Of a stretch of DNA of 31,479 nucleotides, positions 1-25,503 are shown piece after piece. How positions within the stretch are numbered: the stretch's first letter is position 1; each line of letters starts with the position of its first letter. The position numbers were made by a program, and so were the translations under genes. This DNA is from a virus (Duplodnaviria > Heunggongvirae > Uroviricota > Caudoviricetes). Location of the stretch: the IMG/VR virus record IMGVR_UViG_2547132280_000007; one strand, given 5' to 3'. The notes beneath the pieces were generated by a model. That model saw only the letters and a program-made list of their open reading frames with translations, made no database searches and was not told the DNA's origin.

Positions 1-642
1 TTAATCGGACGCTTTTAAATTTTTATTTTTCCCTGCAGAAAAATTAGCTTTCCCGCTGTTTTGCAACTCAACAAGAGGAGATAACCGTCGGTAAACAGCC
101 AAAAGTATCTTTAACTGAACCAGTTCATCTGCCCCCGATAGTTGAACCAAGTTTTTACGTTGTTCTTCACTAAGTGCCATCACAGATTCAAGTGATTTAA
201 CTGCGTCAGAAACAAGTTCAATCTCTTTAATTTGATTCTGTATACGCAGCTTCTCTGATTTCAACTTTGCCCATTCTCTTTGTCGATATGTACGCATCAC
301 CTGATCGTAAACTTTGTTGGCAGCCAGAATACTTCCACCAACAGCAGTAACTAACTCAGCAATCTGCCAAGAGATATCAATAAGAGCAGACAATTCAATA
401 AAGCCAGGAGAGGCATACTGAATTTTTTTCACTACAGGACGTAAATCTGGTGGAGTCGCACTGTAAGCCCCTCTAAAAAAGTTCACTACACTGTGCCCAC
501 CCTCCCAAGGCATTGTTGAATATCCTCTTGATCCTCCTTTTAGGCCATAAAAAAAACCATATAGCTGCAAATACTCTTTCGTTAAGACCGCGAAATCAGC
601 TAACTCCCAACGATTATCAAGCTCAATTATAACTTTTTCCAT
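1..642 (-). CDS. hypothetical protein, 213 aa, AT-rich; moron or flanking gene of unknown function
   Basis: Complete ORF (ATG at 642, stop at 1-3) with GGTGG about 6 nt upstream of the ATG. Roughly 38% GC against about 52% for the phage backbone. No motif recognised; C-terminal half looks coiled-coil-like (heptad-rich, K/E/Q/L). Confidence 0.5.
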   Translation of the reverse strand: MEKVIIELDNRWELADFAVLTKEYLQLYGFFYGLKGGSRGYSTMPWEGGHSVVNFFRGAYSATPPDLRPVVKKIQYASPGFIELSALIDISWQIAELVTAVGGSILAANKVYDQVMRTYRQREWAKLKSEKLRIQNQIKEIELVSDAVKSLESVMALSEEQRKNLVQLSGADELVQLKILLAVYRRLSPLVELQNSGKANFSAGKNKNLKASD

Positions 643-2738: not shown

Positions 2739-5186
2739 TTAACCGTCATGCATCATGCTGGCACGGGCGCGCGCACGTTTATCCCGCTCGTATTTTTCGA
2801 GCGCATCCTGTAACTGGCGGTCAAGCTGTGTCCCCGGCGCAGTACCACCCGTCAGGCTGATGTGATATTCGTTTTTACTCTGGTCCACATAAGAGCGGCC
2901 AGCCGGTGCCGTGACCGGCTGATAAGCCTGATAGCCTGCATAAGAGCTGGTCGCCGGAATATAACCACCGGTGCCATACGTGGCGGCATGAGTTCTGGCG
3001 GCGGTCTGGTCAAGTGTGTCTGACTCTTTGTTGATAACACCGAGTTTTTCCAGTACCCAGTCAATACCGCTGCGCAGTTTGTTGAACGCATTAAGCGGCA
3101 GCATCAGCGCGTCAGCCAGTGCCTGCCCGAACATGACGCCCGTGTCACGGCAACGGTTCAGGGTGTCCTGTGTGGCTTTAACCGGAGCAATCAGGTTTGT
3201 AAACCACTGCCACGCGGCCTGTAACTTTTCGCCCAGCCAGTCAAACACCGGCTTAAGTGGCGTGAACAGCTCCCCCACCGGCGCAAATGCCGCTTTCAGC
3301 CCTTCAACCACACCGCCAAAGAATGCGCTGACAGGCTCCCAGTATTTACGGATAAGCAACGCCCCGGCGACAATGGCAGCCACCACGGCCACAACCGGCC
3401 AGCTAATCGCACCGATGGCCGTCATAACGGCACTACCAACCGTCGTGAAGATTGCCCCCATTGCGCCTGCTGCCGCGATAATGGCATTGATGCCGGTGAT
3501 AACCGGCCAGGCTACAAGGCCAATGGCACCGATGATGCCAGTCAGCGCCAGTGCACCGCCGGCAATGAGGCCGATGGTTGACGCCAGTGATTTGTTTTTC
3601 TGTATCCAGCCGTCGAGTTTTAACACATACTTTGTGGCCGTCTGCGTGAGCTTACGCAGCGCGCCTTCCTGCTGGTCAAACAGGTCAGTCCCCACAGCCT
3701 CATAAGCGGACTGAAACTCCTTAAAGTCACCGCCGAGGTTATCCTGCATGATTTTAACCAGCTCTTCCGTTTTACTGTCCGAGGCTTTCAGCGTGGCGGT
3801 CAGCGTATCCAGTTTTCCGCTTGCTGCCGCTGCCAGTAAAACGTTCGCTGATTTCAGGGCTTCCTCACCAAAAATGGTTTTAAGGTATTCCCCCTTCTGA
3901 GACGTTCCCAGCTTGTGTTTATCAAAGCTGGCCTGAATCTCTTTCAGAATGGTGAACAACGGACGCATATTTCCCTTTTTGTCCGAGGTTTTAACGCCAA
4001 GCTCTTTGAGTGCATCCCATGCTTTTCCAGTCGGAGCCTGTAATCGGGTGACAACGGCACTACTACCCGTACCCGCCATTGACCCCCTGATGTTATTGTC
4101 ATGCAGCACACCGGTCATGGCTGCTGCCTGCTCAAGACTTACACCTGCCGTTCTTGCGACCGGACCGAGGTAAGTCAGTGCATCACTGAGTCCCTGAAAA
4201 TCAGCCGCCGACTTATTCATCGTTGCCGACAACACGTCGCCCACATGGCTGACATCATCATTTGACAGTTGAAAGGATGCCTTAGTCCCCAGCAACAGTT
4301 GCGCGTTTTCTTCCATCGACCGCTGATTCGCCAGCGCCATATTCAGCGTGACCGGCGTTGCCGCCTGAATGGCATCAACATCCCCACCCGCTTTCGCGAT
4401 GATTATCTGTGCACCGACCGCATCATCCGCCGAGGCGGCGGTATTGTCGCCGAGCTGGCGCGCCTGTTTGCGTAGTGCGGTCATTTCGGCGGAGTCTTTT
4501 GCCACTCCGAGCACGGCCTGCAATTCTGAGTTTTTCTGCGCAAACTCATAACCGGGCATCAGCAACTTAACTCCGGCCATCGTTCCCGCCGCCGCAATCC
4601 CCACACCGGCAGCGCCCACTGAGGCCATATTTCCGGCCAGTTCCTTTCCGGCCTGATAACGCTGTTTGACTGCGTTAAGTTTGGCCTGTTGCGCACTGAC
4701 ACGCGCCAGCGCGTCACGCTGACGGTTAAGTTGTGCGATGGTTTCACTGATACGGTTTTTCAGTCCCTGCTCATCATGTGCAAGATTGCGGGTATTAATT
4801 CCCACAGCGGCCAGTTCCCGCTGCTGGCGTTTAACGGAATCCGTCAGGCGGTTATATTTCGCCTGTAAGTCCTCCGCCGCACGCTTTGCGGATTCCAGCA
4901 CTTTCGCCTGAGCACGGGTCGGTCGTTCGGTGTTTTTAAACTGTGTGGCAAGGGCTTCGGCCTCCTGCCGTGCCTTTTCAAGTGCATGACCAGTTACGGC
5001 AAGCTGTGCGCTGGTCTTACGGAATCCCTCAATACGGGATACCTGACCGTTCAGCTCGCGCAGTGATTTTTGTGTTTCCCGGATATCCCCCGACAGCGAC
5101 TTGCTCGCTGTACGGATGGATTTAAACGGGCGGGATGCCTGGTCAACAGCCCTGAGCAATACCTGTAATTTTACATTGTTACTCAT
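2739..5186 (-). CDS. T: tail tape measure protein gpT, 815 aa
   Basis: 815 aa; coiled-coil N-terminal region, central hydrophobic Gly/Ala-rich segments; located directly downstream of E/E'. Confidence 0.9.
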   Translation of the reverse strand: MSNNVKLQVLLRAVDQASRPFKSIRTASKSLSGDIRETQKSLRELNGQVSRIEGFRKTSAQLAVTGHALEKARQEAEALATQFKNTERPTRAQAKVLESAKRAAEDLQAKYNRLTDSVKRQQRELAAVGINTRNLAHDEQGLKNRISETIAQLNRQRDALARVSAQQAKLNAVKQRYQAGKELAGNMASVGAAGVGIAAAGTMAGVKLLMPGYEFAQKNSELQAVLGVAKDSAEMTALRKQARQLGDNTAASADDAVGAQIIIAKAGGDVDAIQAATPVTLNMALANQRSMEENAQLLLGTKASFQLSNDDVSHVGDVLSATMNKSAADFQGLSDALTYLGPVARTAGVSLEQAAAMTGVLHDNNIRGSMAGTGSSAVVTRLQAPTGKAWDALKELGVKTSDKKGNMRPLFTILKEIQASFDKHKLGTSQKGEYLKTIFGEEALKSANVLLAAAASGKLDTLTATLKASDSKTEELVKIMQDNLGGDFKEFQSAYEAVGTDLFDQQEGALRKLTQTATKYVLKLDGWIQKNKSLASTIGLIAGGALALTGIIGAIGLVAWPVITGINAIIAAAGAMGAIFTTVGSAVMTAIGAISWPVVAVVAAIVAGALLIRKYWEPVSAFFGGVVEGLKAAFAPVGELFTPLKPVFDWLGEKLQAAWQWFTNLIAPVKATQDTLNRCRDTGVMFGQALADALMLPLNAFNKLRSGIDWVLEKLGVINKESDTLDQTAARTHAATYGTGGYIPATSSYAGYQAYQPVTAPAGRSYVDQSKNEYHISLTGGTAPGTQLDRQLQDALEKYERDKRARARASMMHDG

Positions 5187-6193: not shown

Positions 6194-7384
6194 TTAATTG
6201 CTGTTAACCGAGGTGACCAGATTTGCCAGGTATTTATCGGTAATACGCTGGCGCAGGGTCAGGTTTTCAAGAGGAGGCACCGGGGTATAGTCGTAGTCGA
6301 TATACAGTTTTCCGGCCTTGAGGGTTTCCGCATCGTTGGATTCTTCGCTGAACCAGCAGGTCGCATCCACGATATAGCCGTTTGTTTTCAGCTCACGGAA
6401 TTTGGCATTGATGCCGTCAACGATGTCGCGAATCAGCGTTGCGGTGATGGGCTTATCCACAGCCCACATGTGCGCCTCAGCCATCGTGTCGGCCAGCACC
6501 TGCGCAGTGCGGGTGTAGTTTTCAAAGAGGAACAGCGGGTCATCAGAGCAGGTACGGTTACCCCAGAAGCGGAAACCGTCGCGGCGAATCAGCGTAGTGA
6601 CACCTGACTCGTTAAGAAGGTCAGCATCGGTGCCGGACTCCTGCAAATCCCAGAATACAGATGCGCTGATGCCGGTAACACCGTTTACCCCGACGTTGGA
6701 CAGCGTTTTATGCCAGCCCTGCTCCTGGTCGATTTTAGCGCGCAGCCCCAGTGCACGGGCGGTGGCATACGCGGTGGCGGTGGTACTGGTGACCGTATCC
6801 CATGCGAGGAAATCCGGCCAGATGACCATCAGCTCACGCTGGCTGAAATTCTGACGGTAGGCTTTCACCTCGGAAATGGTTTTACAGCCCCATGCGCTGA
6901 TATACCCGAAAGCGCGCAGCTTCTGACAGACTGATGCCAGTGCAACAGCCACCTCTTTGGTATCCAGTCCCGGCACGCCGAGAATACGCGGTTTTACACC
7001 GGTTACCGACTCCGCCGCCAGCAGGGCTTTCAGTCCGGTGTACTGACCGTTTTCGTCGGTGGTGCCGATGATATTGGAAACGGTCTGCGCGAGTTTCGTT
7101 TCTTCGTCTTCGCCGGTGCCGTCTTCCACACGCACGACAACGGTGACCGGTTTTGACTGGTCGGCGATGGCCTGTAACGATGCCGCCAGCGTGCCTTTTT
7201 TACCGGCCTTCGCAATTGCGCTCTGCACATTGGTAATCAGCACCGGTTTATTGAGGGGGAAGGTTTCCGCATCTGCATCGCTGGCCGTGCAGACCATGCC
7301 GACAATGGCCGTGGATACGGTGGAAATGACGCGGGTGCCGTCGTTAATCTCCAGCACCTGCACGCCGTGATGATAGTCACTCAT
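6194..7384 (-). CDS. FI: contractile tail sheath protein gpFI, 396 aa
   Basis: 396 aa, first gene of the FI-FII-E-T-U-D operon. Confidence 0.9.
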   Translation of the reverse strand: MSDYHHGVQVLEINDGTRVISTVSTAIVGMVCTASDADAETFPLNKPVLITNVQSAIAKAGKKGTLAASLQAIADQSKPVTVVVRVEDGTGEDEETKLAQTVSNIIGTTDENGQYTGLKALLAAESVTGVKPRILGVPGLDTKEVAVALASVCQKLRAFGYISAWGCKTISEVKAYRQNFSQRELMVIWPDFLAWDTVTSTTATAYATARALGLRAKIDQEQGWHKTLSNVGVNGVTGISASVFWDLQESGTDADLLNESGVTTLIRRDGFRFWGNRTCSDDPLFLFENYTRTAQVLADTMAEAHMWAVDKPITATLIRDIVDGINAKFRELKTNGYIVDATCWFSEESNDAETLKAGKLYIDYDYTPVPPLENLTLRQRITDKYLANLVTSVNSN

Positions 7385-7480
7385 CCGTTTAACTCCGTGG
7401 TTAATGGGTGAGTGGTATTTTCAGTTGTGCAGGGCATGAGATGCTATTTGACCTGGCTGGTCAGGGGATGAAACAACAGA
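7385..7480 (-). promoter_or_regulatory. candidate Ogr-dependent late promoter region upstream of FI
   Basis: Non-coding spacer between the terminator at 7481-7506 and the FI start. No consensus element was identified with confidence. Confidence 0.3.
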
Positions 7481-7506
7481 TAAAAAAGGCGGGCAATCAG
7501 CCCGCC
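7481..7506 (-). terminator. intrinsic terminator ending the V-W-J-I-H-G operon
   Basis: Stem ggcgggc (7488-7494) / gcccgcc (7500-7506) with loop aatca; on the minus strand followed by TTTTTT (7482-7487). Confidence 0.65.
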
Positions 7507-7714
7507 TGTATTTATTGCGGTATTTCCGACCATTCAGGATTTGCAGGATCCACACGACCAGAAAGACAGCTACTGATTAATCAGGCCAATAAATACATGA
7601 ACAGTAAGCAATAGCCCGGCAGGTCTGAGGTACTGGCGCAATATAATTTGTGGCTGGATTACCTGTACGCACCGGAGCGGTCCGATACTTCCGGTACGTC
7701 AGATATTGAATGGC

Positions 7715-8125
7715 CTACGCCTCCTGCAGTTCAGGCCAGATGACATCCGGTGCGGTGCTGGTATCTGTTGCCGTCACAGCGTCGATATAATCCAGCACAA
7801 CGTTAAGTCGGGTAGTTTCTTCTTGCGTCAGTTTGCGCCCGGCCTGCAGCTTTAACTGAATCACGCTGATATTGGCCATTGCTGCGTCTATCAGCGACTG
7901 TTTTTTCTGTTCAGCGTCAGCTACCAGTTCATCATGAGAACGTTCCGGAGGGAGCGGCGCAGTAAATACCCCGTCTGAATACCCCCAGCCGATTCCGGGA
8001 TGCTCACTGATATCAGAAATATCAATGAGCTGCTGATTATCCGGCACTGTGAATTCAGCCTCGCCATCCCAGACAATGACATTCACAACCATCCCATTTT
8101 CAATAACTGCATATGACGCATTCAT
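7715..8125 (-). CDS. G: tail fibre assembly chaperone (gpG-position), 136 aa
   Basis: Start ATG overlaps the H stop (TAATG) with GAGGAG 9 nt upstream. Shorter than P2 gpG (about 175 aa), consistent with an exchanged host-range cassette. Confidence 0.75.
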   Translation of the reverse strand: MNASYAVIENGMVVNVIVWDGEAEFTVPDNQQLIDISDISEHPGIGWGYSDGVFTAPLPPERSHDELVADAEQKKQSLIDAAMANISVIQLKLQAGRKLTQEETTRLNVVLDYIDAVTATDTSTAPDVIWPELQEA

Positions 8126-10290
8126 TATGCAAACTCCTCGATAATACAAATCCCAGCGGCACCTTTCCCGCCTGTCATACTGGTTCCGCTATAACCGGCA
8201 TCGTATGCACCACCTCCGCCTGAACCATATGCCTTACCGCTAACGCCACCGCCAGCGCCTGCGCGTCCACCGCCACCCCAGTACGATGTTCCGCCTTCAC
8301 CACTGACGCTGATATTTCCGGACTGACCGTCGCCTCCATTTCCACCAGTGATGCGGATATCGCCAGTACTCGGCACACCTCCGTTACCGCCGTTTGTGTT
8401 TGTAATTCCCACTTTCCCGCCACCTGCGCCACCAGGAGCAATTAACGATGCGAATACGCTATTCCCGCCACTGGTGCCGTTCGTCGCACTAACACCACCG
8501 GCCCCACCTGCGCCGATAGTGACTGGATAACTATTCTGTATCGGGGTCATTATTGAAATTATTGTTCCACCGGCCCCACCGCCAGCACCGAAAAACGTTT
8601 CATTATTGGATATAGCCTTGCAGCCGCCCCCTCCGCCACCGCCGCCCGTTATTGTGACCCTAATCCGTTTTGTTCCTGGCGTCGGGGTGTACGTACCTGA
8701 TGACGTGAAAACCCGGGTATTCACCAAGCGTCCCACGTATCCACTTGCATCGCTCAAGCCAAGGTCAGCAGCAGTAGGTTTAATATGTGAACTGTAAATT
8801 ACATATACAGTTCCATCTGTCAGGCCTGTTGGTTTATTCGCTGTATAAGATGGTGATGTATGAATCGTTACGCTGGCGTTACTGGTATAATCCCACTGAA
8901 TATTAACACGTGTGGTGTAATTACCTATTTCAACATAAACATCATAGGTATCACCGGATGTATTCACCCATGCAAAATTAGTAAATCCAACCGATGTCCG
9001 TCGCCATAACGCACCAGTAAGACCTTTTGGATTCCCATTTCCCGCACGAAGAACAAGTTCAGATATACCAGCCTGCATAGGGGAGTTAACATTATATCCA
9101 GAACCACCAATCAGACTTATGTAAACCACGGAACTGGCCTGTGGCATGGTTACAGTTGCCAGCCTGAACCATCCTGTACCACCACTAAAAGACATGGTTG
9201 TTGAATTTGTTGCTCCAATATTGCGCAGGAATAATCTTTTATCAGGAATATCCGCGCCGTTCTGATCTTTCTGAAGACGTTTTTCAGCATTGTCATAGGC
9301 AGACTTCACCGCTTTCGGTGTTGCGGCCAGCGTTTCAGAAGTGCTATTGGTGGCGCTGCTGAGCTGGACAAGGCCTTTTCGCGCTGTGGTCGCGTCCTGT
9401 GCGGTATATTTCCCGTTAGCAAGGTCATATGCTGTCTTAACCGCCTTTGGCGTTGCCGCAAGCGTTTCAGAATCGCTGTTGGTGGCGCTACTGAGCTGGA
9501 CAAGACCTTTTCGCGCTGTGGTCGCGTCCTGTGCGGTATATTTCCCGTTAGCAAGGTCATATGCTGTCTTTACCGCCTTTGGCGTTGCCGCAAGCGTTTC
9601 AGAATCGCTGTTGGTGGCGCTACTGAGCTGGACAAGACCTTTTCGCGCTGTGGTCGCGTCCTGTGCAGTATATTTCCCGTTAGCAAGATCATACGCGACC
9701 TTTACCGCTCTCGGCGTTGCGGCCAGTGTTTCAGACGTGCTGTTGGTTGCGCTGCTTAACTGAGTAAAACCTTTTGCGGTCAGCGATGCATCCGGGTGTC
9801 GTCGTGAATGTTCGTGTTCTGAGATTTTGTCATCCACATATTTACGGGTCGCCAGTACTACCGACGGGTCGATTTTCAGCGTGATGGCTTCGGTATTCGA
9901 GACAACCAGAATCATGCGGATAGTCTGGGTACGACCACTGCCTTCCTGCAACTGCGGTTTGTACGTTTCCGGGCAGTTCGCCACCGCAATGAGTACGCCT
10001 TCATCATCATAAAGCCCAATCTCACGGATCCAGAATCCTCCCTCGTTTTCAGGGATAATTTGCTCCGCAATAATCTGGCTCTGATTGTTAGGGTCAACAC
10101 TCAGAAGATTCAGCGGTGCAATGCGTTTCTGGTTAATCAGTTTTGTCTGTGCCGGGTCTGGTGTCGGTAATACACCATTCGCATCACCAACGGCCATTTG
10201 CGTCAGATTCAGCTTACTGCCGAGCATCGTCGCGTTAGCCAGTCGTGCTGCGCCCTGATTAGTCAGAATGGCGTAGTATTTCACTGTCAT
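8125..10290 (-). CDS. H: tail fibre protein gpH, 721 aa, mosaic: P2-like N-terminus, four ~40-aa repeats, glycine-rich C-terminal domain
   Basis: The N-terminus MTVKYYAILTNQGAARLANATMLG... is the conserved P2 H baseplate-attachment region. The middle has four copies of GLVQLSSATNSxSETLAATPKAVKxAYDLANGKYTAQDATTARK. The C-terminus is Gly-rich (GGGGGGGCK..., GAGGGAGG, GGNGGDGQSG). Confidence 0.85.
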   Translation of the reverse strand: MTVKYYAILTNQGAARLANATMLGSKLNLTQMAVGDANGVLPTPDPAQTKLINQKRIAPLNLLSVDPNNQSQIIAEQIIPENEGGFWIREIGLYDDEGVLIAVANCPETYKPQLQEGSGRTQTIRMILVVSNTEAITLKIDPSVVLATRKYVDDKISEHEHSRRHPDASLTAKGFTQLSSATNSTSETLAATPRAVKVAYDLANGKYTAQDATTARKGLVQLSSATNSDSETLAATPKAVKTAYDLANGKYTAQDATTARKGLVQLSSATNSDSETLAATPKAVKTAYDLANGKYTAQDATTARKGLVQLSSATNSTSETLAATPKAVKSAYDNAEKRLQKDQNGADIPDKRLFLRNIGATNSTTMSFSGGTGWFRLATVTMPQASSVVYISLIGGSGYNVNSPMQAGISELVLRAGNGNPKGLTGALWRRTSVGFTNFAWVNTSGDTYDVYVEIGNYTTRVNIQWDYTSNASVTIHTSPSYTANKPTGLTDGTVYVIYSSHIKPTAADLGLSDASGYVGRLVNTRVFTSSGTYTPTPGTKRIRVTITGGGGGGGGCKAISNNETFFGAGGGAGGTIISIMTPIQNSYPVTIGAGGAGGVSATNGTSGGNSVFASLIAPGGAGGGKVGITNTNGGNGGVPSTGDIRITGGNGGDGQSGNISVSGEGGTSYWGGGGRAGAGGGVSGKAYGSGGGGAYDAGYSGTSMTGGKGAAGICIIEEFA
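9300..9790 (-). repeat. four tandem direct repeats, 120-bp period, inside H
   Basis: Units starting near 9311, 9441, 9561 and 9681 are near-identical; copies 2 and 3 differ by only a few bases. They encode the 40-aa tail-fibre repeat. Confidence 0.85.
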
Positions 10291-10898
10291 GCGTTTACTC
10301 TCAGGTTATCAATTAAATGAATGACCGAGGCCGGGAAATAATCCCCTCCGACAATAATGGCCTCCGGGGTGTAGGGATAAACCGTCAGGGCGTCACCGTG
10401 ATAGCATCCCGTTCCGGCAAAAATGTTGCCGGTTGTACTTAAACTGATAGCCAGTCCCGTCAGATGGCGGCTCGCCGGTTTTGCATCAGCAACGAGACGT
10501 TCCAGCTCCAGATACATTTCTTCGGTAATACCCTGCTCAAGCACGCCAACAACGATACGGAACGTCCCCGGCTCCTCGTTGAGCTGCCACCACTCCCTCA
10601 CTTCAATCAGATAGCCGAGCGGCTCCACAACACGCCGGATTGCGCCGACAGTACCCTTATGACAGTGGATGAAATAGGCATCGCGGATAACGGCGCGTTT
10701 TGTCGCTTCCGGCCACTTTTCATCCCACCTGTCGACCGAAAAGGCCCACGCCAGCCACGGCAGCAGATTTGCCGGGCAGGTGTCCGGGTTCCACAGCTCA
10801 CGAATACTGACCGGCGTTTTTTCAATTTCCGCACAGGCTTTTGCGGCAGCAATTTCAAGCGGTGATGAGCCGGTCGGCAGCAGTCGCGAATCACTCAT
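10287..10898 (-). CDS. I: baseplate protein gpI
   Basis: Synteny between J and H; the track ORF is 203 aa (P2 gpI is shorter, so the true start may be internal). Confidence 0.8.
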   Translation of the reverse strand: MSDSRLLPTGSSPLEIAAAKACAEIEKTPVSIRELWNPDTCPANLLPWLAWAFSVDRWDEKWPEATKRAVIRDAYFIHCHKGTVGAIRRVVEPLGYLIEVREWWQLNEEPGTFRIVVGVLEQGITEEMYLELERLVADAKPASRHLTGLAISLSTTGNIFAGTGCYHGDALTVYPYTPEAIIVGGDYFPASVIHLIDNLRVNA

Positions 10899-22320: not shown

Positions 22321-22450
22321 TTGCGAATTCACGCACATCAACGCGAATCTTACATCATGAATAATTCATTTATGGCTACAGAATGAGTATATTGCATGTT
22401 ATGAAATAACTTTGTGCTCCTTCTCGTGGACATGTTCAACGGAGATCCAG

Positions 22451-23572
22451 ATGATTGCTGATTCAGAAATACTTTATGTTCCGCTAGATGATTTGGAACT
22501 TGACACAGAAAACCCAAGACTTCCTGAAGGCGTGTCTCGTGACCAATTGGGAATGATTAACTACATAGCAACCTCAACATCTATCGAAGACTTAATGAGT
22601 GCTATTGCGGAAAATGGTTTTTTCCCTGGAGAACCATTGATTGTCATTCCTGATAGTGGAGCGCCGGGGAAGTACATTGTAGTTGAAGGAAACCGTCGCC
22701 TATCCGCGGTCAAATTATTACGCGATCCGACACTATGTGAAAATCCAAGTGCTCGACTACGAGAAATTGCATCAAATGCAAAACATACGGTCGATCGTGT
22801 TCCTGTCATTGAGCGCCAAACAAGAGAAGAGATTCTTCCGTACCTTGGTTTCAGACATATTACTGGTGTCAAACAATGGGAACCCTTATCAAAAGCTCGA
22901 TATATTAAACAGCTTTTTGATTATACCAATGCAAATCTGGATCCAATGCTACGCTACTATGAGGTTGCCAGAGCTATTGGCAGTCGTAGGGATCATATCA
23001 AGCGTAACCTAGACGCTTTAGCGGTGTATGAAATCATTAAAAAAAATGATTTTTATGGTATTGAAAAGCTAGATGAAGAAACGATTAAATTTTCAGTATT
23101 ATCAACAGCACTTGCTGATGAGCGGTTAGGCCAGTTTGTCGGAGTTTCAATCGAAGACGATGGAGACACAATACCAAGTCATCCTATCATCAATTCTAAG
23201 AGTTTAAAGAACAAAGAAATAAAAGAACTAACTGAATGGTTATATAAAAAAGGCGAGGATAAAAAAACTCGTGTAGGAGAATCACGTAATTTAAGAGAAC
23301 TAGCTGCTGTTGTAAGTAGCCCTAAGGCATTGGAGCAATTCCGAATGGGGGCTCCACTCGCAGTTGCCTATCAATTGACATCTGATATTACTAAGGACTT
23401 TCTCCAGTTACTTTATCAAGTTGAAGCAGCTTTGATAGATGCAGCAGGCATGGTTGCCACGGTAGAGTATGATAGACAGGCCCATGAAGTAGCACGAAGA
23501 ATCAATAAACATATTAAGCTTATAGGTTCTGAAATAGCAGAGAAAAATAGCAGAGGTGATGATGACTTTTGA
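22451..23572 (+). CDS. ParB/Srx-like N-terminal domain protein, 373 aa (cargo gene 1)
   Basis: Start at ATG 22451 with GGAG 6-7 nt upstream. The N-terminal 150 aa follow the ParB N-domain pattern: LDDLELDTENPR, IVVEGNRRLSAVKLL (GxRR box), VPVIER. AT-rich. Confidence 0.7.
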   Translation: MIADSEILYVPLDDLELDTENPRLPEGVSRDQLGMINYIATSTSIEDLMSAIAENGFFPGEPLIVIPDSGAPGKYIVVEGNRRLSAVKLLRDPTLCENPSARLREIASNAKHTVDRVPVIERQTREEILPYLGFRHITGVKQWEPLSKARYIKQLFDYTNANLDPMLRYYEVARAIGSRRDHIKRNLDALAVYEIIKKNDFYGIEKLDEETIKFSVLSTALADERLGQFVGVSIEDDGDTIPSHPIINSKSLKNKEIKELTEWLYKKGEDKKTRVGESRNLRELAAVVSSPKALEQFRMGAPLAVAYQLTSDITKDFLQLLYQVEAALIDAAGMVATVEYDRQAHEVARRINKHIKLIGSEIAEKNSRGDDDF

Positions 23573-24551
23573 AGTAGGAGTTATGCATCCCAACTCTCCT
23601 CATTTGTTTGCAGATTTAGCCGAGTTACTCACGGTAATTAATTATACCGGACGTAACTCACTACATAAAAATGATTTAGATTCAGTAAGAAAATTCGGCA
23701 TAACAAGCGTTGAAGAAATTGATGAAGAATGTAATTCTGAAGAAGAAATTAATGGAGACGCTGAGAGAAATGATCGTTTTGAAGAGCAACTCGAAGATGT
23801 TTGGACACAACTCGAATATAGAGAAAGTGCTCTTGGAAAAATATATCCATTTATAATTTCAGGTGATGAGATAATTATTAAAGAAAATCTAAACCAACAA
23901 CAACGAATATATGTTTTTCTTCTTTGCTGCTCTAGACTTAGATCCTTTAAGTCGATTAAAGGAGCAGCACAACGTTGGGCAAAGAGCTTTGCCAGAGTAT
24001 GTAAAGTAGCAATGATTTCTCTCTTACCTGCACATGGCACCGTAAGAATTTTTGATGCTAACTCCGATGATAGGCAAAATTATTATGGAACAAATCTTCG
24101 GACAGCTCTACAAACTTTAGGAAAAGATCTTGGAGTTTGTAGTTTAAACACAAGGGAAATAAATAGAGCTCCCACATCTGGTGATGCCGGGTTTGACCTA
24201 ATTGCTACAGTGGAATTTCCTGATGGTCAAACTAGCAACTATGGAATTCTTGGTCAATGTGGTGCACAAGAAACAGGGTGGCCAAGCAAAACATTAGAGG
24301 CTAACGTGTTAAAACTGACCACCTATTTCCAAATTGCGTTCCAGCATCCATCAACAATGTTCACGCCTGTTTTCTATCGGGAAGCAAATGGCGAATGGGT
24401 AAGCACACACGCAACCGCTGGGGTATTATTATTAGATAGGTTGAGAATCATATATCTACTTGATAAGGCAAACCAATGGGAAGCGATAACTACCTCTGAT
24501 TGGTTTCGCGAATTTGAGGAAGAGCTTTATACATTAAATCCAGAGCCTTAA
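23562..24551 (+). CDS. hypothetical protein, about 329 aa, translationally coupled to gene 1 (cargo gene 2); possible nuclease or effector
   Basis: Overlaps the gene 1 stop by 11 nt. Start is uncertain (GTG 23556, ATG 23559/23562 or ATG 23583); AGAGG lies 5 nt before ATG 23562. No confident motif seen. Confidence 0.6.
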   Translation: MTFEVGVMHPNSPHLFADLAELLTVINYTGRNSLHKNDLDSVRKFGITSVEEIDEECNSEEEINGDAERNDRFEEQLEDVWTQLEYRESALGKIYPFIISGDEIIIKENLNQQQRIYVFLLCCSRLRSFKSIKGAAQRWAKSFARVCKVAMISLLPAHGTVRIFDANSDDRQNYYGTNLRTALQTLGKDLGVCSLNTREINRAPTSGDAGFDLIATVEFPDGQTSNYGILGQCGAQETGWPSKTLEANVLKLTTYFQIAFQHPSTMFTPVFYREANGEWVSTHATAGVLLLDRLRIIYLLDKANQWEAITTSDWFREFEEELYTLNPEP

Positions 24552-24558
24552 TAGCTTA

Positions 24559-25503
24559 TCAATCCCATAATTCTATTGGCAATGCCTTCGTTACAGCTTC
24601 AAAAAGCGGCGGAGGCACTGCATTACCAACCACCGTGTATTTCATGCCAAGACTTGCAGCATTTGTTTCTGGAAACACTAGATCCTCAAACCCTTGTAAT
24701 AGTGCTGCCTCTCGAAAACTGAATCTGCGAGCTCTCCGATCCTCAACAAATCTCCATTCATCAGTTCTTACTTTCTCCATCGGAGGACTGACAGGATGCA
24801 ACGGCATATGCCTTGCATTAGCAACTATTGTCTTTGAAATTTGATCCCAATCCTGGCGACGATTGCGAGACATATAATACCAATGGAATCCCATATCATA
24901 AAATTCACCTTCTGGCCATTCAGGTAAATGCCCTATAGCATCTTTAATAGTAACATAGTTGACGCCAGTTGCTGGCCCATGAGTTGGCTGAGGGAACTCG
25001 TACTTAACTTTGAAATCATTACGGATTCCTACGATAAATATTCTTTTTCTTTCCTGCGCTACTCCATATTCAGCCGCATTTAAAACTTTTGCGGAAACAG
25101 TATAACCTGCTTCAGTAAAAACCCTGATCTGGTCAGATAACAAATGCTCAAAATTTTTTCTAACCATACCAGACACGTTTTCTACTATAAAAGCTTTAGG
25201 CTTTATATTGTTTAAAGCTCTAGCAAACTCTAAATAAAGAGTATTAATTTTTCGATCGGCTTTACGCGCACCACCCTGGCTGAATCCCTGACATGGATAA
25301 CAACCTACCAGCAAATCAGATTTAGGAAAAGTAGTTACATCAGCAATATTGCCTAATATGTAATCAGTTTCTGGATGATTGGCAATATAAACATCGCGCG
25401 CATACGGCAAGATATCGTTGGCCATAAGCACATCAAAGCCGGCTCTCAAAACCCCCGCATCGGAACCACCGCATCCAGAAAAAAGTGAAACTACTGTTGG
25501 CAT
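24559..25503 (-). CDS. DNA (cytosine-5)-methyltransferase, 314 aa
   Basis: C5-MTase motifs in canonical order: I SLFSGCGG, IV GCYPCQGFS (catalytic Pro-Cys), VI FIVENV, VIII QERKRIFIVG, X VVGNAVPP. Strong SD (GGAGGGGATA) before the ATG. Confidence 0.85.
   Translation of the reverse strand: MPTVVSLFSGCGGSDAGVLRAGFDVLMANDILPYARDVYIANHPETDYILGNIADVTTFPKSDLLVGCYPCQGFSQGGARKADRKINTLYLEFARALNNIKPKAFIVENVSGMVRKNFEHLLSDQIRVFTEAGYTVSAKVLNAAEYGVAQERKRIFIVGIRNDFKVKYEFPQPTHGPATGVNYVTIKDAIGHLPEWPEGEFYDMGFHWYYMSRNRRQDWDQISKTIVANARHMPLHPVSPPMEKVRTDEWRFVEDRRARRFSFREAALLQGFEDLVFPETNAASLGMKYTVVGNAVPPPLFEAVTKALPIELWD

Follow-up and report, generated by a model that had tools for sequence, protein, structure and literature searches.

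Tail fibres that end in a glycine-rich tip and are served by a small dedicated chaperone have been described before. In the cyanophage Pam3, the tip of the fibre gp24 is a tumour necrosis factor (TNF)-like sandwich whose loops carry 12 glycine-rich motifs stacked as a four-layer lattice, and its distal part, which is less conserved, was proposed to bind the receptor (PMC9608196). The Pam3 chaperone gp25 binds the fibre tip with a beta-sandwich (residues 1–55), which a linker of 8 residues joins to a helical domain that trimerises; a resemblance of the fibre fold to that of ALK/LTK was likewise pointed out by the authors (PMC9608196). In Klebsiella phage SCNJ1-Y, host-range mutations of the gp24-like fibre TFP_Y map to the glycine-rich domain, purified TFP_Y blocks DNA ejection triggered by lipopolysaccharide (LPS), and there is experimental evidence that a glycine-rich domain of this type determines host range and recognises LPS (PMC12671077). 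Here we describe a related pair of genes, the tail fibre gene H and the downstream assembly chaperone gene G, of the Tfa type, in a stretch of viral DNA of 31,479 nucleotides (nt) (IMG/VR record IMGVR_UViG_2547132280_000007; hereafter the window, meaning the whole stretch).

The window is a P2-like prophage of Escherichia coli. Six complete E. coli genomes, TW11681 among them, are 100% identical to it over positions 7600–10400; in the RefSeq record of TW11681 the element adjoins fieF and pfkA and carries a full set of P2 late genes. We propose, with a probability of roughly 85%, that the 3′ third of H together with G is a portable fibre-tip/chaperone cassette that was grafted onto a P2-type fibre. 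This mobile cassette spans window positions 7715–8766. The features of H and G are as follows, with protein positions in amino acids (aa):

8125–10290, minus strand: tail fibre gene H, an open reading frame (ORF) of 721 aa; a four-module mosaic
9841–10290, minus strand: module 1 (aa 1–150), P2-type tail-collar/baseplate-attachment domain; PF12571 over aa 1–150, E 1.3e-62
9277–9786, minus strand: module 2 (aa 169–338), four 44-aa phage tail fibre repeats; PF03406 in four stretches
8767–9273, minus strand: module 3 (aa 340–508), variable shaft segment of the Mu S′ type; 89% aa identity to Muvirus S′v
8128–8766, minus strand: module 4 (aa 509–721), TNF-like and glycine-rich fibre-tip domain of the Pam3 gp24 type; PF21722
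7715–8125, minus strand: gene in the G position, encoding a 136-aa Tfa; PF02413 Caudo_TAP, 73.8 bits; predicted to be coupled to H
7955–8125, minus strand: N-terminal beta domain of G (aa 1–57), probably client-specific; five beta strands in the model
7718–7936, minus strand: C-terminal helical domain of G (aa 64–136), the conserved Tfa oligomerisation domain; modelled helices at aa 64–85, 87–94 and 101–118

Modular organization of the tail fibre

The Pfam content of H consists of PF12571, four copies of PF03406 and PF21722. PHROG 6202 (‘tail fiber protein’) matches H over its full length, and the RefSeq protein WP_000216969.1 (‘tail fiber protein’) of E. coli TW11681 is 100% identical to it; an NCBIfam search returned no family for either H or G. 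Compared with P2, the fibre is longer (721 versus 669 aa) and the chaperone shorter (136 versus 175 aa), the latter as already reported in a preliminary description of this DNA.

P2 H aligns directly with aa 1–250 of H, where the two share 67% aa identity, and up to about aa 338 if extra repeat copies are counted. At the DNA level, the 5′ end of H and the adjoining gene I are 95.5–97% identical to those of P2-like coliphages. The N terminus is thus P2-like, as the preliminary description had stated, and collinearity with P2 H and G does not extend over the full length: the shared part is the N-terminal third of H.

The fibre repeats of module 2 are encoded by a tandem repeat at 9292–9753, with a period of 132 bp and 3.5 copies at 90% match (Tandem Repeats Finder). 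P2 H aligns to two of the four repeats. Close relatives from other E. coli genomes have an H that is shorter by about 133 bp, consistent with one repeat copy fewer; fibre length therefore varies by repeat number.

No Pfam family was matched by module 3. This segment shares 89% aa identity and 91.7% DNA identity with the S′v ORF of the Yersinia Muvirus vB_YpM_5, in which it sits beside the invertase gene hin. The homology ends at ...IKPTAA (aa 508). In the PDB, the Mu fibre S/S′ matches H aa 287–364.

These alignments place two junctions in H, one at about aa 338, where the P2 homology ends, and one at aa 509, where the glycine-rich cassette starts. The homology between H and gp090 of the Escherichia jumbo phage Goslar begins at about aa 500–509, near the start of module 4. 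Close homologues vary strongly just ahead of about aa 509 and little within the tip domain, a drop that fits the expectation for a module boundary. The swap that the preliminary description had expected an alignment with P2 to reveal is present, although at two junctions (aa 338/340 and 508/509) instead of a single one; likewise, the glycine-rich region that it delimited at 8700 was confirmed, but the module itself starts about 66 nt upstream, at aa 509 (8766).

Fold of the glycine-rich tip

Within the last 190 residues of H (aa 531–720, window 8700–8131; 8128–8130 encodes the final Ala), 64 are glycine (34%), and the three blocks that precede this end contain 4–11%. The glycine-rich end that had been noted is therefore there, and so are all four of the tracts quoted for it: GGGGGGGGCK at aa 549, GAGGGAGG at aa 568, GGNGGDGQSG at aa 649 and GGGGRAGAGGG at aa 672. 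Two Pro-rich ORFs on the plus strand, at 8348–8530 and 8606–8797, were rejected as genes, as they are mirror images of the GGN codons.

A glycine content of 34% invites the suspicion of a disordered, low-complexity linker or of a compositional artefact, and the BLAST low-complexity filter indeed suppresses most matches of this region. However, the composition lies far beyond chance, because PF21722 (Gly_rich_2) matches aa 530–718 along nearly the whole profile (2–224 of 226) with 48.2 bits, against a curated cut-off of 24.3. Several PHROG tail-fibre families also cover the glycine-rich part. Among 1.84 billion cluster representatives searched, 8067 matched the tip at E ≤ 1e-3. The domain stands nearly always at the extreme C terminus, as seen in the 150 representatives listed, and in H it likewise runs to the last residue. 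An alignment of 147 distinct homologous domains showed nearly invariant glycine positions and variable segments between them. A full-text literature search for PF21722 or Gly_rich_2 found no paper.

The tip was then compared with solved structures. Searched as a single sequence, H matched Pam3 gp24 in the PDB with E 0.29. A family profile built from 116 of the matched representatives hit the Pam3 fibre over the whole domain (7ypx_A, E 3e-22; 7yfw_a, E 6e-22). The AlphaFold2 (AF2) model of the tip, computed with the family alignment, had a predicted local distance difference test score (pLDDT) of 94.1 and a predicted template modelling score (pTM) of 0.88. Foldseek placed 7ypx_A first among PDB structures (E 2.5e-9, TM-score 0.66), followed by tail-tip proteins of Mycobacteriophage Bxb1 and then, weakly, by the TNF-like/glycine-rich domains of ALK/LTK. 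About 12 glycine-rich motifs were counted in the tip sequence. To judge from its model, the glycine-rich part of H is a folded, catalogued domain and not low-complexity sequence. With thousands of almost exclusively C-terminal matches, a confident model, a solved homologue and conserved glycine positions, we regard the probability of a disordered linker or artefact as close to negligible.

The structure comparison also bears on a second reading of the glycine tracts, in which the region would belong to the T-even gp38 adhesin family, known from Salmonella phage S16, and form a sandwich of polyglycine-II helices. Neither gp38 nor its structure 6F45 appeared among the top 50 Foldseek matches in the PDB or in the PDB sequence and profile searches. 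Moreover, the tip is fused to the fibre and is not a separate adhesin, and its partner is a Tfa-type chaperone. We consider membership in the gp38 family very improbable. By analogy with its relatives, the tip of H is presumed to be the receptor-binding domain, and the assignment of receptor binding to it is drawn from those relatives.

The short Tfa chaperone

G is matched by PF02413 (Caudo_TAP) over aa 31–132 at 73.8 bits (cut-off 22.1), and by PHROG 188 (‘tail fiber assembly protein’) at E 5e-28. Its ATG overlaps the stop codon of H (TAATG), with a Shine–Dalgarno-like GAGGAG 8 nt upstream, and G is predicted from this arrangement to be translationally coupled to H. From Met1 to the stop codon, G is collinear with a family of proteins of 136–138 aa, one member of which (P0281, 136 aa) occurs on 285 contigs. 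A TTG at 8149 was rejected as the start of G, since the whole family begins at the ATG (MNASYAVIENG).

The AF2 model of G (pLDDT 88.8) shows a five-stranded beta domain (aa 3–55), a Pro-rich linker and helices (aa 64–118). Its sole significant fold match in the PDB is chain a of 7ypx (E 5e-4, probability 1.00), whose 162 aa equal the Pam3 chaperone gp25 in length. The two members of the cassette thus correspond to the two members of a single solved complex. A PDB sequence search with G alone or with a profile of its close family returned nothing meaningful (RAD52 and eIF3h at E ~0.2–1). A broader profile of the C-terminal domain matched the Mu Tfa protein U (PDB 5yvq_B, residues 107–175; E 1.6e-11), and P2 G shares 26% identity with G (E 0.001). 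G is short owing to its small client-binding N-terminal domain of about 57 aa and not to truncation.

A different account of its length would be that the cassette is dead, G being a truncated pseudogene, the fibre not assembled and the whole a decaying prophage relic. The NCBI annotation pipeline (PGAP) labels 7715–8065 ‘tail fiber assembly protein, incomplete, missing N-terminus’, and does likewise for two further copies of the cassette, on a plasmid and in E. coli IAI1; a neighbouring tfa stub with an internal stop codon is a sign of local decay. However, G is collinear with the large 136–138 aa family that includes gp089 of Goslar, a phage that has been isolated and is viable, the start of G is coupled to the stop of H with the Shine–Dalgarno-like motif in place, and AF2 folds both of its domains confidently. 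The surrounding P2 late genes are all annotated as intact in RefSeq, and the pseudogene label recurs wherever the short family occurs, which points to an artefact of annotation. A dead cassette is therefore improbable in our estimate. G is intact and its RefSeq label is wrong; for the short Tfa in general, the label is probably a systematic annotation artefact.

The records that carry the label ‘incomplete, missing N-terminus’ are from three unrelated genomes, namely TW11681 (locus L001, 9116–9466), the plasmid (L094, 4501–4851) and IAI1 (L095, 4465–4821). The plasmid record also labels the glycine-rich fibre ‘missing C-terminus’.

Pairing of tip and chaperone across loci

Separate hidden Markov models (HMMs) of the tip, the G N-terminal domain and the G C-terminal domain were scanned on 80 viral contigs recruited with the G family. 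At 77 of the 78 loci that had upstream DNA and a G N-terminal domain, an ORF with a C-terminal glycine-rich domain ends 1–5 nt before the Tfa gene. These loci include L060 and L062–L083, in which the G homologue is 43–46% identical to G and has a C-terminal domain of a different Tfa subtype. Distant pairs retain the N-terminal motif YA-I-NG-V-N-I-WDG...GIG-YS, even those whose C-terminal domain is of another subtype. Two distant tips (L090, 50% identical, and L092, 40–43%) are followed by Caudo_TAP proteins of 145 and 137 aa, respectively, that carry the N-terminal motif, with overlapping stop and start codons.

Among isolated phages, only Goslar gp089 matches G over its full length (66% identity, 138 aa). 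Others, including HK97, SfIV, pro483 and KP12, match aa 61–136 only, at 76–82% identity. In HK97, pro483, SfIV and KP12, the Tfa C-terminal domain occurs without the N-terminal domain, and no glycine-rich domain was found within 7 kb. In the HMM scan, P2 has neither the N-terminal domain nor a glycine-rich fibre, and its G is distant from the G of the window.

The chaperone had been called ‘matching’ in the preliminary description, and this is upheld by the co-occurrence of the G N-terminal domain with a glycine-rich fibre, which Tfa proteins with the C-terminal domain only do not show. From this co-inheritance we infer that the N-terminal domain is client-specific and binds the glycine-rich tip. 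Such a pattern agrees with the modular model published for Tfa proteins, namely client recognition by a variable N-terminal domain and oligomerisation by a conserved C-terminal one. This model is reportedly that of North et al. from 2019.

On a bacterial contig (L091, 3337–3540), the gene after a distant glycine-rich fibre encodes a protein of 67 aa, which aligns with the Tfa N-terminal motif alone (...V-N-WDG...IG) and lacks the helical C-terminal domain. By its sequence, it may be a minimal chaperone consisting of the N-terminal domain only.

Distribution of the cassette

The last ~220 residues of Goslar gp090 are 70% identical to the H tip, and the Tfa gene gp089 directly follows gp090. Of 5426 complete E. 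coli genomes, 263 contain the DNA of the cassette at a coverage of at least 80%, some on chromosomes and some on plasmids. On a 91-kb plasmid, the cassette forms part of a 4.4-kb fibre gene beside a recombinase remnant. In a prophage of E. coli IAI1, it is carried by a 355-aa fibre after genes for baseplate J/gp47 and DUF2612 proteins. Protein matches show the tip joined either to PF12571 and PF03406, as in P2-type fibres, or to PF21446 on contigs of about 90–100 kb.

Across Goslar, P1-like plasmids, other prophages and E. coli genomes, tip and G travel together. The swapped host-range cassette suggested in the preliminary description is accordingly supported, as the tip and the short Tfa recur jointly on unrelated phage backbones.

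Region downstream of G and other parts of the window

Two further features lie between G and the sheath gene FI (6194–7384):

7531–7743, plus strand: C-terminal part of a second tfa, a remnant; RefSeq pseudogene whose translation has an internal stop
7487–7507, minus strand: strong intrinsic terminator-like hairpin closing the H–G unit; stem of 8 pairs (7 of them G–C), then TTTTTATCTG

FI lies downstream of the hairpin, and in P2 a terminator is annotated at the corresponding position behind G. The inverted tfa stub, which weakly matches the HMM of the G C-terminal domain, runs tail-to-tail into the last 29 nt of G. An identical 29-nt overlap is found in pro483, KP12 and SfIV; a DNA invertase lies nearby in pro483 and KP12, and in pro483 the segment further includes inverted crossover repeats of 30 nt as well as an alternative fibre end.

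This arrangement could be read as part of an invertible host-range switch, still active and alternating two tips, as in the gin system of Mu, the cin system of P1 or the pin system of e14. The convergent stub overlaps G exactly as in pro483 and KP12, both of which encode an invertase together with an alternative fibre end, and the Mu S′v segment to which the shaft module is 89% identical adjoins hin in a Muvirus. However, the ~330 bp between G and the sheath gene (7385–7715) are too short to hold an invertase or another fibre end, and the stub contains a stop codon. The full 26-bp Din-type crossover consensus had no match in the window, even with up to 3 mismatches allowed. The Din-type core AAACCNNGGTTT had one match with 1 mismatch, at 8709–8720, which is at chance level (mean 1.15 per window). 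We consider an active switch extremely improbable; any inversion switch at this locus is a fossil.

A near-palindrome, GTGAAAACCCGGGTATTCAC, is located at 8705–8724, some 45 nt into the glycine-rich module, and its core resembles the centre of a Din site with one mismatch.

Further away, a low-GC island at 22412–25503 (34–45% GC, versus about 56% elsewhere) lies between portal-side genes and a large replication gene. It encodes a 386-aa PD-Lambda-5_A-like protein (PADLOC, E 6.6e-29), a convergent C5 cytosine DNA methylase (PF00145, E 5.5e-65) and an overlapping ORF of 331 aa, which had no Pfam or PADLOC match and is possibly a partner of the PD-Lambda-5_A-like protein. By its gene content the island looks like defence cargo in a variable region of P2. 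At the edge of the window (1–642, minus strand), beside ogr in RefSeq, a 213-aa ORF annotated there as hypothetical matches PADLOC PD-T4-10_B (E 1.3e-34) and no Pfam family.

Proposed origin and function of the cassette

The domain identities, the junctions, the intactness of both genes and the co-inheritance of the tip with the G N-terminal domain were observed at this and related loci; the following account of how the parts act draws on the structures of Pam3 and Mu and on the Klebsiella phage for the mode of binding, the formation of the trimer, the role in receptor binding and what becomes of the chaperone. The TNF-like beta-sandwich of the tip would present loops of about 12 glycine-rich motifs that pack as a lattice, and the variable non-glycine segments at its distal end would most likely contact the host receptor. 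This receptor could be LPS, the type known for relatives. The N-terminal beta domains of G, specific for this tip, would bind to the sides of three nascent tips, while its C-terminal helices would join three chaperones, and thus three fibre C termini, letting the trimer fold from the tip and in register. Release of the chaperone would probably follow. Recombination probably brought the cassette in, with the shaft end at ...IKPTAA and the Tfa C-terminal domain serving as the two conserved flanks. Its source may have been an invertible host-range segment of the Mu/P1/e14 type, of which only the dead, inverted tfa stub would be left.

Several observations weigh against a grafted tip/chaperone cassette. 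The global TM-score of the G model to Pam3 gp25 is only 0.41, despite the match probability of 1.00, and a PDB search found no sequence match for the G N-terminal domain. Both structure models, of the tip and of G, are of monomers. RefSeq labels G a pseudogene. The loci in the pairing analysis were partly recruited through a peptide pattern of the N-terminal domain and contain many close relatives, so the 78 are not independent events. There is also one exception to the pairing, a 183-kb viral contig (L057) in which no glycine-rich fibre was found within 3.5 kb; its full-length G homologue (3501–3914, 69% identity) lies behind a 182-aa ORF that is not glycine-rich.

We favour the grafted cassette with these points taken into account. 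A stronger version, which we hold tentatively and would rate at a little under even odds, is that the tip together with a Tfa of matching N-terminal domain is a self-sufficient and ancient host-range cartridge, kept paired from cyanophages to enterobacterial phages and moving by way of the shaft end ...IKPTAA and the Tfa C-terminal domain, with receptor specificity residing wholly in the non-glycine segments. If so, the cartridge would move freely among P2-like, P1-like, Mu/e14-like and jumbo phages, and a two-gene graft would suffice to retarget any of their fibres.

The locus contains a swapped fibre-tip/chaperone cassette of a known and structurally solved kind that is common in E. coli, an instance of ordinary host-range mosaicism. 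It involves no new mechanism. Domain, structure and chaperone logic have all been published. Its value lies in being a well-delimited example of a host-range change in a P2-like prophage, in which the unit that must move is the tip plus a Tfa with the matching N-terminal domain. This knowledge is useful when fibres of the P2, P1 or tailocin type are to be engineered or when host range is to be predicted from sequence. A systematic error in RefSeq came to light as well: in all three of the RefSeq records inspected, the intact 136-aa Tfa is called a pseudogene.

Comparison with known systems

The extracellular TNF-like/glycine-rich (TG) domain of the animal kinases ALK and LTK shows a weak but consistent resemblance in fold to the tip (Foldseek E 5e-3 to 3e-2). 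It differs in its low TM-scores (0.25–0.32), in the lack of sequence similarity and in its eukaryotic, cytokine-binding role. TFP_Y of Klebsiella phage SCNJ1-Y is, like H, a fibre with a glycine-rich domain of the Pam3 gp24 kind, but it is a short fibre of a different phage, and its likeness to H is set by the published description (PMC12671077).

Two systems resemble the backbone onto which the cassette is joined. P2 H/G has the same position between gene I and the sheath gene, the same collar and fibre repeats and a downstream Tfa-type chaperone. P2 H differs from H in its two aligned repeats, its shaft and its C-terminal end; this end resembles that of a Mu S′ ORF at ...FRPIQKYING. With Mu S/S′ and U/U′, the locus shares the S′v-type shaft (H aa 340–508) and the homology of the G C-terminal domain to Mu U, as well as the logic of a variable Tfa N-terminal domain that binds the fibre tip and a conserved C-terminal domain that oligomerises. 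Unlike in Mu, there is no invertase here, and the tip domain and the Tfa N-terminal domain are unrelated to those of Mu.

The other two systems resemble the cassette itself. Pam3 gp24/gp25 (PDB 7ypx, 7yfw; PMC9608196) has a TNF-like and glycine-rich tip with about 12 motifs, and a chaperone, encoded directly downstream of the fibre, in which a linker connects a small beta domain at the N terminus with a helical domain at the C terminus; the chaperone described here has the same layout and gene position. However, gp24 is a minimal fibre of 280 aa with a helical N-terminal stalk, whereas the tip described here is carried by a shaft of 508 aa that derives from P2 and Mu. The tips share ~25–28% identity, gp25 is longer than G (162 versus 136 aa) with no detectable sequence similarity in the N-terminal domain, and the host of Pam3 is cyanobacterial, whereas that of the P2-like prophage is enterobacterial. 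Goslar gp090/gp089 is carried on the backbone of a 237-kb jumbo phage, and its 1324-aa fibre has a different shaft; nevertheless, it has the same cassette in the same gene order, with the tip 70% and the Tfa 66% identical over their full lengths.

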